Assembly: GCA_937872085.1 (NCBI GenBank)
Contig: CALMQK010000363.1
Coordinates: 1 to 53,934, forward strand
Origin: an uncultured euryarchaeote
Lineage (GTDB): Archaea > Thermoplasmatota > Thermoplasmata > UBA10834
DNA: 53,934 nt
Direction: 5' to 3'
The translations under genes and the position numbers were made by a program. The notes beneath the pieces were generated by a model. The model was given only the letters and a program-made list of their open reading frames with translations. It searched no databases and was not told the DNA's origin. This document shows positions 44,772 through 51,589 of the stretch, piece after piece. Position 1 is the first letter of the stretch; each line of letters begins with the position of its first letter.

Positions 44772-47636
44772 TCATCTTATGCGCTCGAGCGAAAATGCTC
44801 CGATCATCAGGGCCTTGCTCGTGTGCTTGTACTCGACCCAGTCCCTCGTCTGTGCTTCGCCGATCCCTTGGATGCTGAGAAGGGTCTTCTGCTTGTCCGT
44901 CTTGAACTGGACAGACCCCGTCATGAGGTGCTGCACCGATTCGAGTTGCTGCTCGGTGTGCATACCCCTTTCTATCGCGAACAGAGAGACCGCCTTGGCC
45001 AGCTTGACCTTTGCAGCAACGGTCTGGGCGAACTGGAACGCCTCCTTCTCGTTCGACTGGGTCATGCTGAGTGAGAGCGACATGTAGGCTAAGCGGAAGT
45101 ACGGCTGCTTCTGCCTTTGGAAATCCTTGATGCATTTGTCGAGCGCGGCTGTGATTCCGCCGAAGTCTCCTGGACCTGACACCTTGATCACGCTCGGGTC
45201 GCTGCCGGCCTGCGGGTCCTGGACTCCCGATGCATCTATCCAGCGGACCATGCCAAGCTGCTGCATCTCCATGAACGTTGGGAGGATCGGCGCAATCTCC
45301 TTCGATATCTCGGCGGGCGGGTGCGATGTCGTGATCACGATCGCTGGCACGCCCTTCCTCAAACCTTCTGCGAGGAAGAGCAACATCGCCACTTCCTTTC
45401 CGATAAACGGTGGGCCGACGAATAACACTGTCGAGCCGAAGGGCATTCCGCCCATGAGAAGATCGTCCAGCCGCTCCATCCCGGTCTTGACCTTCGCCTC
45501 GGCATACTCTTCCTCGACCGCCTCCTCCTTCCCCTCGAGGTCCTCAGCTAGATGGACCCGGAGGGACTTCTCCTTCTTCTCCAGGTCCTTCTCGCGCTGA
45601 TAGAGCCGAGATTTGAGCTCCTGCTCGTGCTCCATGAGTCTCTTCTCGCGGTAATCGAGGGTCTTGGCACGTTCATCCTCCTCCGGGATCTCAGCCTCCG
45701 CCCTGACCTCCTCCACTTCGTCCACGCTCTCGAGGATGTCGCGCTCCATCGCCTTGAGCTCCGCCTGGCGCAACCCGACCTCGGCCTCCTGGGCGTGGAG
45801 ATCCTTCTCCTTCTCCAGGAGCGAGCGCAACCGGGTGTTCATGCGATCCTTCTCGACCATAAGCCCTTCGTTGAGCTCCTTGATCTTCTGCTCCCTCTTC
45901 TCGAGGGCCGCCATCTTCCTCGTGATCTCCTCTTCGCGCGTTTCGATGGTGGATAGTTTTGTACGCGTGTTGACTGCAAACTCCTGATACTGTTTCTCCT
46001 TGCTGCTAAAGGCTTCCTTCGACCTTGAGACCTCCTCAAGCTGTGAGTTCAAACCCTCGGCTGCTGCCCTCAGGTTAGCCTCCTTCTCCGTGAGCTCCTT
46101 CTCACGGGCCAGGATGGCACCCTCCTTGTCGACAAGCTCGTTCATCTGCTTGTCCGCCCTCGTTATCAGCCTTGCAGAGCGCTCCGACTTCTGGCGGATG
46201 TCGTCCTCGATCGCCTTGAGTGAGATCTCCTTCTCACTGAGTGCCTGCTGCTTAGCCAGGAGCTGCTGCTCGAGATTCTTCGCCGTGGTCTGGTCGATGC
46301 GGGCAACGCCGATCTGTTCCTTGGCCAGCTTCACCTCCAGGCCCTTCAGGTCCAGATGGGTCTCCCTCAACCCCAGTTGCTTCTCTCTTTCGGAGAGCTC
46401 AGCTTGGAGATCATCCAGTTCCTTCCTCATCGTGGTCATGGAGGCCTCGTTCGCCTCGACCTCTGCGACTCGGTTCTTGATGTCGCGGTCCTTTGACTGA
46501 GCATCAAGCAACAGCCTGTTGGCATCTCTCTCGCGGGCGGCGATGACGCCTTCCCTCACTGCGAAGCTTTTCGACACCTTGCTGAGCTCGCTGCTCTGGG
46601 CGTCGAGCTCGGCCTGCCTCATGCCGAACATGTCACGCTGATTCTCTATCTCGCTCGTCTGCTTGGCCAGCTTCTGCCTCTCGTCCTTCACCTGCAGCAG
46701 GCGCGTCTCGATCTCGGACTCGCTCGCCGTGGTCTGGCTCTTCCGCTCGTCGATGGAGGCGAGCTCTTCCTGGAGTCTCTTCTCGTAGACCTCGAGGTCC
46801 GATTCCCTGGACCTGAGCGCGTCCTCTCTGTAGATCAGTGCATGTCGCTTCTTGTCAAGCTCGATGAGCTGCTCCTTCAGCTTTCCGTCGCTGGCTCTAA
46901 GCACCTCGCGCTGTTGCACCGTGGTGGAGCTCGCGATTATGTGCAGCATGGAGCCGCTCAGTTGAATCGCTACAGCGCTGCCGAGGTAGGCCATGGGAAG
47001 TATGCTTGCAAGCACGACATATGGTCCGCCTGGGGGATCGAACTTGAAGAGCACTGGAAAGAACAACAGAACGGGGGGAAAGATCGCCGAGACGATGCTT
47101 ATCGTCCTGCGTCGGCTGGTCCCCTCCCAGGTCATCGCGAGCGAGATCAGCGTGAGGCTGATCCCCAACAGCGACGCCGAGTATAGCCAATCTGGTCGTC
47201 CGAGGGACATGTAGCCGAGCTCGTCGAGGGCTATAAGCACGATGAACAGCGAGGGCACGACGATTGCGACGATGTTCAGTATGAAGTGCGCATCTCTTCT
47301 GTCCGTGAGAAACGGCTCCCATTTTATCATGAGTGCCACTACGGCGACCACGACCCCTGCGACCAGTGGGATCATCCACTTCAGGATTGTAAGGAATTCC
47401 GGGCCGTTGCGAAGGAAATCCCAGTGTACCAGACCGTACGCGATGAGTGCGGTCAGAGCTAGTGCGAGGCCTGACGCTATGCCTATGATGTGCGCGAGCC
47501 TGCCCATCTTGAGCTGAAGGATCGCGGCCTTGCGCGATCTCTTGACCTCTGCGGACTCGACCTGCTCGACGTAGCTTTTTCGAGAAAGCGGCGGCGATGG
47601 TGCATGGTATCTCTTCGGCGGAGCCCGGGGAGCCAT
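44772..47636 (-). CDS. Membrane-anchored long coiled-coil protein with a C-terminal degenerate KaiC/RecA-like domain
   Basis: About six predicted TM helices (aa ~45-235), ~480 aa of heptad-like E/K/L/R/Q-rich sequence, then a KaiC-like domain LDDLLMGGMPFGSTVLFVGPPFIGKEV. Walker A ends in E, and the Walker B position reads AYMSLS. Confidence 0.8.
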   Translation of the reverse strand: MAPRAPPKRYHAPSPPLSRKSYVEQVESAEVKRSRKAAILQLKMGRLAHIIGIASGLALALTALIAYGLVHWDFLRNGPEFLTILKWMIPLVAGVVVAVVALMIKWEPFLTDRRDAHFILNIVAIVVPSLFIVLIALDELGYMSLGRPDWLYSASLLGISLTLISLAMTWEGTSRRRTISIVSAIFPPVLLFFPVLFKFDPPGGPYVVLASILPMAYLGSAVAIQLSGSMLHIIASSTTVQQREVLRASDGKLKEQLIELDKKRHALIYREDALRSRESDLEVYEKRLQEELASIDERKSQTTASESEIETRLLQVKDERQKLAKQTSEIENQRDMFGMRQAELDAQSSELSKVSKSFAVREGVIAARERDANRLLLDAQSKDRDIKNRVAEVEANEASMTTMRKELDDLQAELSEREKQLGLRETHLDLKGLEVKLAKEQIGVARIDQTTAKNLEQQLLAKQQALSEKEISLKAIEDDIRQKSERSARLITRADKQMNELVDKEGAILAREKELTEKEANLRAAAEGLNSQLEEVSRSKEAFSSKEKQYQEFAVNTRTKLSTIETREEEITRKMAALEKREQKIKELNEGLMVEKDRMNTRLRSLLEKEKDLHAQEAEVGLRQAELKAMERDILESVDEVEEVRAEAEIPEEDERAKTLDYREKRLMEHEQELKSRLYQREKDLEKKEKSLRVHLAEDLEGKEEAVEEEYAEAKVKTGMERLDDLLMGGMPFGSTVLFVGPPFIGKEVAMLLFLAEGLRKGVPAIVITTSHPPAEISKEIAPILPTFMEMQQLGMVRWIDASGVQDPQAGSDPSVIKVSGPGDFGGITAALDKCIKDFQRQKQPYFRLAYMSLSLSMTQSNEKEAFQFAQTVAAKVKLAKAVSLFAIERGMHTEQQLESVQHLMTGSVQFKTDKQKTLLSIQGIGEAQTRDWVEYKHTSKALMIGAFSLERIR

Positions 47637-47857: not shown

Positions 47858-48637
47858 TTGCACATTCAAAGAACGGATGCTCTAGAAAAACCGCTCGTGC
47901 AGATACTAGACGAGCAGCTGGTCCGGGAGAGAACCCTGCGGTCTACAGTGCAGACATTGGACGACCTCACGGGCGGCCTGCGCTCGTCACAGGTCACGCT
48001 CTTCGACAGCGACAACGGATACGTTTCCAGCATCCTGCACATGCTCTGCATCCAAGCGATCTCTCAGTTCGACGAGGAGGTCGTGTGGATCGATGGAGGC
48101 AACGCGATCGACCCGTACGCCATCAGCTCGATGTGCAAGCGGCTCAGGCTGGACAAAAGGGAGATACTCTCGCGCGTGAACGTCTCGAGGGCGTTCACAG
48201 CGTACCAGCTCGTCGCGCTCATCGACGAGAAGCTCGAGGAGCAGGTGGAGAGGAGCGCTCCATCGGCCGTGATCGTGACCTCGATAACGGACATGTTCCT
48301 GGACAAGGACATGAAGTGGATGGAGTCGCACCAGCTCCTCAGGAGATGCCTCGAGGACATCTCCAGGGTGACGAAGGAGCACGAGACCATCACCGTGCTC
48401 ACGGACCGGACTCAAAATCAGCTCCGCCCGAGCCCGAAGCTCTCGACGCTGCTGTACGAGCATGCGGACCAGATAGTCCAGATGCGCACGAAGAGGGACG
48501 GGGTGCTCTTCCGATTGCCGAAGGAGGACCGCGAGATCGTGTTCTCGCCCGTGCCATGGAACCAGATGACTTTGGACGAGTTCAAAGGGGAGGATCATAT
48601 TGGGAAGGACCGTGGCCACTTACCGATTGGCACTTGA
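47858..48637 (+). CDS. RadB/Rad51-like RecA-fold protein lacking P-loop and Walker B acidic residue
   Basis: TLDDLTGGLRSSQVTLFDSDNGYVSSIL aligns with RadB LDELLGGG..G.VT.IYG..G.GKT, but the GKT is gone. AVIVTSITDMF replaces hhhhDS. TTG start, uncertain. Confidence 0.7.
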   Translation: MHIQRTDALEKPLVQILDEQLVRERTLRSTVQTLDDLTGGLRSSQVTLFDSDNGYVSSILHMLCIQAISQFDEEVVWIDGGNAIDPYAISSMCKRLRLDKREILSRVNVSRAFTAYQLVALIDEKLEEQVERSAPSAVIVTSITDMFLDKDMKWMESHQLLRRCLEDISRVTKEHETITVLTDRTQNQLRPSPKLSTLLYEHADQIVQMRTKRDGVLFRLPKEDREIVFSPVPWNQMTLDEFKGEDHIGKDRGHLPIGT

Positions 48638-48641
48638 ATCG

Positions 48642-48893
48642 ATGGCCCAGCAATGGAACGATTTCCGGAGGGCGCTCAGGAGCGGGGACAGGGAGGCTTT
48701 CGACGCTCTCATGAACCGGGCGCGGATGCACGCCTCGGCGGCGACATACGCGATCAGCCTGGACCCGACCGAGTCCGCCCTCCTGTCGATGCTGCTCGAG
48801 CACGAGAAGGAGATCCTGGCCTTGAGGAAGGAGCTGGAGAAGAAAGAGCACGGAGAGGAACAGGATGGGGGGAGGAGCGAGTCTGGACAATGA
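48642..48893 (+). CDS. Small alpha-helical hypothetical protein, translationally coupled to the downstream polymerase gene
   Basis: The ATG lies 4 nt after the upstream stop and its own stop overlaps the polB ATG (ATGA). No recognisable motif. A TTG at 48600 is an alternative start. Confidence 0.55.
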   Translation: MAQQWNDFRRALRSGDREAFDALMNRARMHASAATYAISLDPTESALLSMLLEHEKEILALRKELEKKEHGEEQDGGRSESGQ

Positions 48894-51589
48894 GAGGCTG
48901 GCTCATCGACATCTATCCCGAATACAAGACGAACTCGATCGTCTATTGGGTCAAGACTCGAAGGGGCGCACAGAGGATCGTCGATAGGACTTTCCTGCCG
49001 CAGATATTCGCCCATTCCTCTCCCGAGAAGCTGGATGAGCTGGAGAAGGCGCTCCCCATCCTCGACGCCGTTAAGTCCACCGAGCGGGTGATGAGGCGCA
49101 CATGGCTCGGCGAGAAAGAACGCGAAGTGCTCGCGATAACGATCGGCGATTACGCAAAGGTCGAGGAGGTCGCGCACACGATCGACAATCGCGGGAAGTA
49201 CAAGGATTACTCGCTGTTCAACGTCGACCTCAGGTTCAGCCAGAGGTACATCATCGAGAAGGGTCTCTTCCCAATGGGCTTGCTGGAGTTCAGGCCCAAG
49301 CCACGGATGATAGACGACCCGTTCGAGATAGACTACGAGCTTCCCCCCCTGAACACCACGGAACTGAGGGTTAGGCCCGAGGCGAAGCACGGCATACCGA
49401 CCTTCGACGACAAGTTGCTGTCCGCGAAGGTCGGAGAGCGGACGATCGACGGGGACGAGGAACGGATCCTGAAGGGTATCCAGGAGGCCGTAAGTGCCGA
49501 TGACCCAGACGTCCTCTTGACCGAGAACGGCGACGCGTTCTCCTTCCCATACCTATACCGAAGGGCACGGCAACTGGGACTGCCCCCGCTCCAGCTCGGG
49601 AGGGACTCCGATGACCAGCGCACGGACAAGAAAGGCATGTCCTACTTCACGTACGGGCAGATAAAGTACAAGCCAGCCTCGTACAAGCTCCACGGACGGA
49701 TACACATCGACCGCTCGAGCTCTTTCATGTACATGGAGAGCGGCCTGAACGGCCTCATCGATCTCTCGCGCATCTCCGGCATGCCCGTCCAGGAACTCTC
49801 GCGGCTCTCGCCAGGAACGGCCATCAACATGATGGAGATGAACCAGGCGATGAAGGATGGGTGCGTGATCATGTGGAAGAAGAACCTGCCGGAGAAGTTC
49901 AAGACCGCGGAGGAGCTCGTCATAGCCGACAGGGGCGGGTTCATCTACGAGCCCGTGATGGGCATCCACGATCACGTGCTGGAAGTGGACTTCACGTCCC
50001 TCTATCCCAACATAATGGTCAGGTTCAACATCTCACCCGAGACAGTTATGTGCTCATGCTGTCCCGAGCCCAAGAGGAAGGTGCCAGTCCTCGGTTACGG
50101 GATATGCGACAAGCACCTAGGGCTCATACCGCGCGTGCTGAAACCGGTCGTGGAGCGCAGGACGAAGTTCAAGAGATTGGTGAGGGCCGGTGTCGGGGAC
50201 ACCAAGGTCTACAAGGAGCGCGTGGACATCCTGAAATGGCTGCTCGTCACGTGCCTCGACCCCGAGACGGAGCTGCCGTTCAGGAAGCGTGGCAAGTTCG
50301 ACATATCGTCCATCGGGGACCTCGTCGACGGATATGCTGGGAGACGCTCCAACGAGATAGACATCGCGGACGGGCTCGAGGTGTTCGGCGTCGACCAGGA
50401 CTTGGATCCGGCGTTGAAGCACGTGCAGAATGTGTTCAAGTTCCCTGCGCCCAAGCACATGATCGAGCTCGACCTCGGGAAGAGCAAGCTGAGCCTCACT
50501 CCTGACCATCCATGCTATGTCACCAACGGTCACATGCTTGAGCTCCGGAGGGCGGATCGGATCGCCGCGGGGGATCATGTCCCAGCACTCCTCCCTCTCT
50601 ACAGCCGCGAGAGCAGGGCGGGGAACCATGTCGCACATCTTCGCGTGGAGTCCACGAGGAGGGTCAAGGCGAGGTCGGACCACGTCTATTGCCTTGGCGT
50701 CCGCGAGCCACTTCACGGGTTCGCCCTCGCCAGCGGGGTGCTCACACACAACTGTTTCGGATACACGGGCTACAGGAACGCCCGGTTCGGCAGGATCGAG
50801 TGCCACGAGGCCATCAACGCGTACGGCAGGGAGCTGTTCCTGCAGACCTCCGAGATAGCGGAGGCGCACGGGTTCGAGGTCCTGCACGGCATCGTCGATT
50901 CATTGTGGCTCAAGGGAAGAGGCGACCCCGAGAAGTTCTGTGAGCACGTCTCAGGGCACATCGGGATCCCTCTCGAGCCCGTGGGGATCTACAAGTGGCT
51001 CGTGTTCCTCCCGGACCGCGTGCACGGCGTCGGCGTGCTGAACAGATACTATGGGATGTTCGAGGACGGCAAGTTCAAGCTCAGGGGGATAGAGCTCAGG
51101 AGACGCGACACGACCGACATTGTGCGCGACATGCAGAACGACCTGCTCTCCCATTTCTCGAAGGCCTCGGACGCCCAACAGTTCATCGAACTGGTCCCAT
51201 CCGCTCTGGACGTCGTTGACCGATATGTCGAGACGCTAAGGTCTCAGACCGTCCCTCTGAACAAGCTCCTGGTCACGAGGAGCATCACGAAGAAGCTCGA
51301 CGAGTACAGGCAGTTCAACGACGGGGTGGCGGCCCTGATGCAACTTGACGAAGAAGGCTTCGAGGTGAACCCGGGAGAGGCGATACGATACCTCATCTGC
51401 GACTGCAGGAGCAAGGACCCGAAGAGGCGCGTGAAAATCGATTCGTTCATCACGGGTGATGAGGGATACGATGTGGATGCTTACGTCGATCTCCTTCTCC
51501 GCGGGGTCGAGGGGATGCTGCTGCCGTTCGGATACGACAAGAAGAGACTAGCGGAAATCTTCGGCGCGAGGAGCCCGCGGGGGCCTTGA
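48890..51589 (+). CDS. polB: Family B DNA polymerase homolog with inactivated exonuclease and diverged polymerase motifs, interrupted by a mini-intein
   Basis: Collinear with Pfu-type PolB. Exo II reads ENGDAFSFPYL (D to S), Exo I reads NTTE, and the Exo III region is deleted. Motif A DFTSLYPN is intact. Motif B reads KWLLVT/CFGY, motif C HGIVDS, and KxY reads LNRY. Confidence 0.85.
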   Translation: MRGWLIDIYPEYKTNSIVYWVKTRRGAQRIVDRTFLPQIFAHSSPEKLDELEKALPILDAVKSTERVMRRTWLGEKEREVLAITIGDYAKVEEVAHTIDNRGKYKDYSLFNVDLRFSQRYIIEKGLFPMGLLEFRPKPRMIDDPFEIDYELPPLNTTELRVRPEAKHGIPTFDDKLLSAKVGERTIDGDEERILKGIQEAVSADDPDVLLTENGDAFSFPYLYRRARQLGLPPLQLGRDSDDQRTDKKGMSYFTYGQIKYKPASYKLHGRIHIDRSSSFMYMESGLNGLIDLSRISGMPVQELSRLSPGTAINMMEMNQAMKDGCVIMWKKNLPEKFKTAEELVIADRGGFIYEPVMGIHDHVLEVDFTSLYPNIMVRFNISPETVMCSCCPEPKRKVPVLGYGICDKHLGLIPRVLKPVVERRTKFKRLVRAGVGDTKVYKERVDILKWLLVTCLDPETELPFRKRGKFDISSIGDLVDGYAGRRSNEIDIADGLEVFGVDQDLDPALKHVQNVFKFPAPKHMIELDLGKSKLSLTPDHPCYVTNGHMLELRRADRIAAGDHVPALLPLYSRESRAGNHVAHLRVESTRRVKARSDHVYCLGVREPLHGFALASGVLTHNCFGYTGYRNARFGRIECHEAINAYGRELFLQTSEIAEAHGFEVLHGIVDSLWLKGRGDPEKFCEHVSGHIGIPLEPVGIYKWLVFLPDRVHGVGVLNRYYGMFEDGKFKLRGIELRRRDTTDIVRDMQNDLLSHFSKASDAQQFIELVPSALDVVDRYVETLRSQTVPLNKLLVTRSITKKLDEYRQFNDGVAALMQLDEEGFEVNPGEAIRYLICDCRSKDPKRRVKIDSFITGDEGYDVDAYVDLLLRGVEGMLLPFGYDKKRLAEIFGARSPRGP
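50252..50752 (+). mobile_element. 167-aa mini-intein (no homing endonuclease domain) inside PolB motif B
   Basis: Begins CLDPETELPF (block A), has LTPDHP (block B TxxH), and ends VLTHN followed by Cys +1. Removing it restores KWLLVT-CFGYTGYRNARFG, collinear with KLLANSFYGYYGYAKARW. Confidence 0.8.

Follow-up and report, generated by a model that had tools for sequence, protein, structure and literature searches.

Inteins in replicative polymerases are textbook cases. The PolB3 inteins of Thermococcales, Methanococcales and Halobacteria (pol-a, pol-b and pol-c) each sit within a catalytic motif of their family B host, pol-b (PI-PkoII, PDB 2cw7) lying in motif B, while the mini-inteins of the archaeal PolD large subunit (Pyrococcus abyssi (Pab) and Pho PolII; PDB 2lcj, 7oec and 5bkh) have no endonuclease and reside in a polymerase of replication or repair. 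Here, a mini-intein of 167 residues is described from contig CALMQK010000363.1 (assembly GCA_937872085.1) of an uncultured euryarchaeote (GTDB lineage Archaea; Thermoplasmatota; Thermoplasmata; UBA10834), of which the whole stretch analysed, positions 1 to 53,934 of the forward strand (53,934 nucleotides), is hereafter called the window. The intein is also inserted in motif B of a family B polymerase, and its host is PolB2, a paralogue of PolB3. The element is ordinary in kind, while PolB2 as a host gene is undescribed in the PolB2 papers and polymerase surveys searched.

The PolB2 family was first described as 'inactivated' (PMC2527604, PMC4104785), and its motif C has the form HxxxD, which replaces YxDTD (PMC2527604, PMC8764526). 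The Sulfolobus PolB2 (Dpo2) is an active, exonuclease-free extender in mismatch and translesion synthesis (PMC8764526, PMC11791011), and PolB2 has been modelled as a mutasome together with iRadA and PPB2 (PMC11791011), the iRadA-PPB2-PolB2 operon having been published as well (PMC4104785, PMC11791011). The word 'intein' is absent from four PolB2-related papers (PMC2527604, PMC8764526, PMC11791011 and PMC7544198), and the text of Makarova et al. 2014 (PMC4104785) discusses inteins for PolB3 and PolB1 only. One other paper pairs both words, and 'PolB2' there names split inteins (PolB-type polymerases, T4-like phages and marine-sediment metagenomes). In public records, such proteins are listed as 'DNA polymerase elongation subunit (family B)', some of them with a precomputed Pfam intein match.

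The host gene, the insert and their motifs occupy the following positions in the window.

48890 to 50251, plus strand: PolB2 N-extein, 454 residues (alignment, profiles, translation)
49526 to 49555, plus strand: ExoII region NGDAFSFPYL in the N-extein, degenerate exonuclease
49988 to 50011, plus strand: motif A DFTSLYPN in the N-extein, intact
50234 to 50251, plus strand: first half of motif B, KWLLVT, in the N-extein
50252 to 50752, plus strand: mini-intein, 167 residues (translation, intein profiles, AlphaFold model, fold search)
50252 to 50254, plus strand: intein Cys1
50498 to 50509, plus strand: intein block B, Thr83 and His86 (LTPDHP)
50690 to 50692, plus strand: intein block F Cys147
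50747 to 50752, plus strand: intein His166-Asn167
50753 to 51589, plus strand: PolB2 C-extein, 278 residues, stop codon included in the span (alignment, profiles, translation)
50753 to 50755, plus strand: +1 Cys, opening the second half of motif B, CFGYTGY, in the C-extein
50882 to 50905, plus strand: motif C LHGIVDSL in the C-extein, HxxxD form

The segment was confirmed to be a genuine mini-intein without an endonuclease, placed inside motif B, and its resemblance to inteins goes well beyond chance. Translation of 50252-50752 gives ends that read CLDPETEL...VLTHN, with Cys following at 50753-50755, and internal stretches LTPDHPC (block B) and HVYCLGV (block F region), all in frame within the open reading frame 48653-51589 on the plus strand. 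Removal of the insert in silico fuses KWLLVT to CFGYTGY and, counted from ATG 48890, turns a precursor of 899 residues into a spliced product of 732 residues; the spliced sequence matches the polymerase model NF004416 in one contiguous stretch, while the unspliced sequence matches it in two separate stretches. A profile search gave no match of the insert to any endonuclease family, the 167 residues form one compact domain, and the two LAGLIDADG motifs of relatives of 461-528 residues align to a gap in the window intein. The first-pass annotation, made from the letters of the window alone, had read 167 codons starting with Cys, a TxxH in block B, a terminal HN before Cys, no room for an endonuclease and an excision joining KWLLVT to CFGYTGY, and all of these readings held, the last one also in that intein-free orthologues carry the same junction.

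The comparison with intein hidden Markov models, which the first-pass annotation had named as a check, places TIGR01445 (intein_Nterm) at 34.1 bits, above its cut-off of 24.5, and TIGR01443 (intein_Cterm) at 16.0 against a cut-off of 15.6 in the full protein and 14.2 on the insert alone. A six-frame scan of the genome with TIGR01445 gave no match, the window intein included, the model being too short for genome-wide E-values, and this negative therefore does not bear on other inteins of the genome. Among solved structures, the Pab PolII mini-intein (2lcj) is closest in sequence (E 2.5e-5), and the NCBIfam model NF011302 for DP2 with an intein gives 48.8 bits. An AlphaFold model, for which 38 inteins excised from related loci served as input, has a mean predicted local distance difference test (pLDDT) score of 94.4 and no residue below 70. 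In a Foldseek search, the top matches of this model range from E 5e-11 to 1e-8, the best being the Mvu TFIIB mini-intein with a template modelling score (TM) of 0.87, followed by the Pho RadA, Pho and Pab PolII and CDC21-1 inteins, and all top 50 PDB matches are intein, intein-like or hedgehog (HINT-fold) domains. The PolII mini-inteins are strong fold matches of like size, but they differ from the window intein in host (PolD DP2 instead of PolB2), in insertion site and in sequence, with an identity of about 20%; at the position of the block F Cys, the Pab PolII intein has Ser in a HMMER alignment.

Judged by its motifs and alignments, the host is a PolB2 (Dpo2-type) family B polymerase and not a dead enzyme. 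Translation probably begins at ATG 48890 (MRGWLIDIYPE), which shares an ATGA with the stop codon of the gene before it. The best alignment of the exteins is to Thermococcales PolB (E 6e-59), and the best NCBIfam models, NF004416 and NF004418, match the spliced host below their cut-offs. In the alignment with Pab PolB, motif B reads KWLLVT/CFGYTGY against KILANSYYGYYGY, and LHGIVDSL of motif C is aligned to VLYIDTDGL with the distal Asp kept, while the exonuclease motifs are lost, ExoI (DIE) being without a counterpart and FD of ExoII being changed to FS. The first-pass annotation had taken these as degraded motifs of a seemingly inactivated polymerase, which was mistaken, as the host is a typical PolB2 in which KWLLVTCFGYTG and HGI[VI]DS (HGIVD in the window) are near-invariant among about 120 homologues. 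The same metagenome-assembled genome (84.6% complete, 391 contigs) also contains a canonical, intein-free PolB (KILMNSFYG, YSDTDS) on contigs C78 and C20 as well as PolD DP2, which makes PolB2 an accessory polymerase in this genome. The canonical PolB is found in two pieces (G000 C78:383-2644 and C20:1-487) whose ends overlap in FFSHGMKKRYVGRMVWP, and since this overlap is common to the ends of C78 and C20, an assembly break rather than a split gene is indicated.

The exact register of the insertion was obtained from an ungapped alignment running from the Lys to the Gly of motif B, in which K-W-L-L-V-T/C-F-G-Y is equivalent to K-I-L-A-N-S/Y-Y-G-Y of Pab PolB. The insertion at T454/C455 is accordingly located after the Ser equivalent, and thus one codon downstream of N/S. 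The classic pol-b intein of Thermococcales presumably lies at N/S of KxxxNSxYG, a register that is assumed and not read from data, and this agrees with Ser being the sole possible +1 nucleophile in KILANSYYG; the PDB entry of PI-PkoII appears limited to the intein, without exteins. The first-pass annotation had placed the insertion at a classic polymerase intein site equivalent to N/S, of which motif B stands and the N/S position does not. On this alignment, the PolB2 site would be offset by one codon from the presumed pol-b allele (T/C, equivalent to S/Y, vs N/S) and lies in a paralogous gene. An assignment to the pol-b allele of PolB3 was rejected in that the alignment puts the insertion after T454, the N/S register itself being assumed. 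Moreover, PI-PkoII and the LAGLIDADG-bearing PolB2 intein have a weak similarity (E 3.8e-6) that is no greater than that to inteins of unrelated hosts. In a sample of 301 genomes of the phylum, no interrupted PolB3 was found among the matches listed, and no PolB3 intein was found among the host genes inspected.

Orthologues with and without the intein both exist, which was the second check named by the first-pass annotation, and the intein-free ones read KWLLVTCFGYTG. Among the 120 best homologues, extending down to about 47% identity, 105 (the window's own counted) carry an insert of 159-169 residues at KWLLVT/C...HN/CFGYTG, nine are intein-free and read KW[LV]LVTCFGYTG across the junction, and six carry a version of 528 residues at the site. 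The intein is lacking from all Methanomassiliicoccales orthologues, which read KW[VIL]LVTCFGYTG, and Ala or Ser takes the +1 position in a few other lineages. The +1 Cys is therefore native to PolB2 and, in the absence of an intein, replaceable. Within the window's GTDB order, the intein is present in 34 of 49 species genomes; within its GTDB family, PolB2 is found in 38 of the 45 other genomes and the intein in 33, with intein-free PolB2 genes in G332 and G334, the other PolB2 sequences without an intein being fragments at contig ends.

On the unrooted extein tree, the intein-free state amounts to five changes, four of which are forced by starred branches; one of the five is P0121 of the sister clade, and at least three forced changes fall within the window's mini-intein clade. 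The pairwise identities of inteins and exteins are correlated with r = 0.89 (4,560 pairs), and the intein is retained over host divergence down to about 60% identity. Because of this co-divergence and the absence of an endonuclease, clean losses from a vertically inherited intein are the economical reading.

In more distant clades, the same site holds mini-inteins of 179-201 residues and long inteins (461-528 residues) that carry two LAGLIDADG motifs, and sister-clade junctions vary among GQ/S, GN/S, SN/S and SQ/C. The clade with the 528-residue version also includes three mini-inteins of 168 residues that have one deletion boundary in common. In P0107-P0113 and P0115, the 528-residue and 168-residue alleles are interleaved on the extein tree and the minis share derived residues, which suggests that the two alleles were exchanged among close hosts by recombination or homing. 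Outside PolB2, the closest intein relatives in the phylum sample are PolD DP2 inteins, followed by those of MCM and other hosts. As a separate observation, L087 (G056:C4:38710-39207, minus strand) is a free-standing open reading frame of 198 residues in another Thermoplasmatota genome that scores 81 bits to a PolB2 intein profile. Its last residues are HE before the stop, Cys1, TxxH and the Cys of block F are all lost, and no PolB2 exteins surround it; by sequence, it resembles what is left of an intein that has decayed or become stranded.

The intein is under purifying selection, with a constraint two to three times weaker than that on its host. Measured against the two least saturated relatives, the ratio of nonsynonymous to synonymous substitution rates (dN/dS) of the intein is 0.24 (dS 0.22) and 0.29 (dS 0.79), while that of the exteins is 0.07-0.13. 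Among the 38 diverse inteins, C1, P9, G46, P67, T83, H86, V145, C147, G156 and F157 are invariant, and D3, T6 and N167 are conserved in at least 90%; Cys1 is also invariant in all 105 mini-inteins aligned, which end in HN followed by Cys with the exception of cluster P0027. The first-pass annotation had argued that an intein with all splicing residues preserved implies selection for a contiguous host protein, and this fits a host under such selection whose splice residues Cys1, Thr83, His86 and Asn are (nearly) invariant in more than 100 orthologues.

Class 1 inteins mostly have Asp at the block F position, while class 3 inteins have the branch nucleophile Cys there. The window intein shares this block F Cys with class 3 inteins such as that of mycobacteriophage Bethlehem DnaB, and has Thr165 near its end, as in the rest of its clade, but it differs from them in residue 1, in the block B residue and in the +1 residue. 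Class 3 is defined by a non-nucleophilic residue 1 that co-varies with a Trp-Cys-Thr triplet, with Thr or Ser at +1 (PMC2807308). A class 3 assignment was rejected since Cys1 is invariant, the block B residue is Cys88 in the window's clade and Phe in sister clades instead of Trp, and +1 is Cys. As the class 3 definition is not matched, the intein is filed as class-1-like with an unusual block F.

The locus very probably holds a vertically inherited mini-intein, predicted to be self-splicing by the class 1 route, in motif B of a PolB2 translesion polymerase. We infer splicing itself as well as the class of its mechanism, which would proceed in four steps. An N-S acyl shift at Thr454-Cys1 would be aided by Thr83 and His86 of block B; the +1 Cys would then attack the thioester, Asn167 would cyclise with the aid of His166, and an S-N shift would finally yield a Thr-Cys peptide bond. 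The predicted product is a PolB2 of 732 residues carrying the family-invariant KWLLVTCFGYTGY, which would presumably partner the co-encoded iRadA and PPB2. The ancestor of the intein was probably a homing intein that carried a LAGLIDADG endonuclease at this site and lost it later. The intein would persist in a splicing-competent state under the selection that acts on PolB2, as any deletion other than an exact one would damage motif B.

Four points weigh against this account. The Pfam model Intein_splicing (PF14890) gives 26.3 bits (E 7e-6), under its gathering score of 35.8. Cluster P0027 (77% extein identity, five members) ends in HT and not in HN, which should block Asn cyclisation; it may represent a splicing-defective allele or a sequencing error, and the constraint on splicing is therefore not absolute. 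The invariant Cys at position 4 of block F may mean that details of catalysis differ from textbook class 1. In addition, assays of PolB2 activity cover Sulfolobales, not Thermoplasmata.

An alternative, which is considered improbable, is that the intein is conditional and acts as a post-translational gate, keeping a mutagenic PolB2 inactive until a cue is received. The cue could be a reducing environment, temperature, DNA damage or single-stranded DNA, and the control could use disulfides among four putative active-site cysteines (Cys1, Cys88, Cys147 and the +1 Cys). Redox control via disulfides has been reported for PolII (DP2) inteins, which are the closest characterised relatives of the window intein, and the invariance of Cys147 (38 of 38), the conservation of Cys88 in the window's clade and the retention of the intein among hosts as little as about 60% identical are in line with such a function; a damage-tolerance polymerase would also be an activity worth gating (PMC8764526). 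However, this retention is already accounted for by the difficulty of an exact deletion within an invariant motif, while the at least three clean losses in the window's clade, together with the intein-free alleles of the family, indicate that the host works without the intein, and the rate of evolution of the intein is two to three times that of its exteins, as would be expected for a passenger. A wider version of the gate, in which the motif B site is a conflict arena of endonuclease-bearing inteins, mini-inteins, clean losses and T-insertion alleles (set out below), is regarded as similarly doubtful. That the insert does not splice, being a domesticated or decaying HINT domain that remains permanently in the protein or inactivates it, is very unlikely: the Pfam score below threshold, the lost terminal Asn of P0027 and the degenerate L087, by which decay in this intein lineage happens, would fit, but the catalytic residues are (nearly) invariant in more than 100 orthologues with a dN/dS of about 0.25, the insert interrupts the best-conserved fingers-domain helix at a point where the flanking residues adjoin each other in every intein-free orthologue, and strong purifying selection on the exteins would make no sense for a protein disrupted for good.

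With a vertically inherited, probably self-splicing mini-intein as the preferred reading, the evolutionary evidence also bears on the host. Selection on the splice residues is independent evidence that the PolB2 of Thermoplasmata has to be produced as an uninterrupted chain, which supports a functional PolB2 outside Sulfolobales. The site displays most proposed stages of the homing cycle, from an intein with its endonuclease through loss of that endonuclease and prolonged vertical inheritance to exact loss of the intein, and is therefore a convenient natural data set on this cycle in one gene family. Moreover, compact Cys-type mini-inteins of mesophilic archaea are potential parts for protein engineering.

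A further kind of variation at motif B was observed in Thermoplasmata of soil and groundwater that belong to a sister clade (PolB2 about 45% identical to that of the window). Several of their genes have one to three extra T's directly in front of the motif B Phe codon, one codon past the splice junction. Alleles with one extra T (+1) were found as seven distinct sequences (L045, L069/L129, L077, L128, L132, L133 and L134), reading TGT-T-TTC or GCA-T-TTC, and there is one +2 allele (L078) as well as in-frame +3 alleles coding for FF (L068/L130/L131 and P0143). The insertions are located as follows.

L045, 5730 to 5745: T insertion
L069, 2280 to 2295: T insertion
L077, 5350 to 5365: T insertion
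L078, 5355 to 5370: T insertion
L068, 5355 to 5372: T insertion

Each frameshifted gene is otherwise intact, with this defect alone. The contig names, where readable, are those of short-read assemblers (k141-type for L077 and L068, RBG-type scaffolds for L045), and since several separate studies are also involved, a homopolymer error is unlikely. On the tree, the +1 alleles do not group together but lie dispersed between canonical, intein-bearing and +3 alleles, and the T insertion is therefore recurrent. An ancient, maintained frameshift in all intein-free alleles of the sister clade was rejected on the grounds of this scatter and of many canonical in-frame alleles. Read in the zero frame, every +1 allele has UUU CGG, where tRNA-Phe slipping by +1 onto UUC would bring back the canonical protein; programmed frameshifting in archaea has one established case, a -1 shift (PMC8211752). 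The idea of CGG as a rare 'hungry' codon after UUU was unsupported, the count being crude and spurious long open reading frames being common at 67% G+C. The C-terminal part that is shifted has a dN/dS of 0.09-0.20, and such pairwise values cannot prove continued translation of the frameshifted copies. It is possible that the T-insertion alleles are null, that they are repair scars or resistant sites of a homing endonuclease, or that they are subject to +1 recoding.

Around the intein-bearing gene, gene order and content correspond to the published iRadA-PPB2-PolB2 'mutasome' operon, to which 47858-51589 on the plus strand is assigned on sequence grounds with PolB2 as the last gene. The two genes upstream of PolB2 are listed here.

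47858 to 48637, plus strand: iRadA, a RadA/Rad51-like protein, first gene of the operon (Pfam Rad51, 33.1 bits, cut-off 22)
48642 to 48893, plus strand: PPB2 (arCOG07300-like), 83 residues, assigned by size and position (start ATG 48642)

The gap between iRadA and PPB2 is 4 nt, and the stop of PPB2 is the one that overlaps the PolB2 start as ATGA. By sequence reading, iRadA has no Walker A, FDSDNGYVSS being found where GxxGxGKT would be expected, and its matches to RadA equivalog models are weak and far under their cut-offs. The product of 48642-48893 gives no family match in Pfam and NCBIfam, and it is probably PPB2 by its size, its position and this absence of a match, not by a profile; an alternative start at TTG 48600 would give 97 residues, and the helical character of PPB2 is taken from the published family description. 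In the order of its genes, a P-loop-less iRadA, a small PPB2, the HxxxD form of motif C and the lost exonuclease, the locus is like the published operon (PMC2527604, PMC4104785, PMC8764526, PMC11791011), from which it differs in the intein of PolB2, unmentioned there. Outside this published operon, a divergent protein of 954 residues encoded at 44772-47636 on the minus strand has a C-terminal KaiC-like domain (Pfam KaiC, 43 bits).

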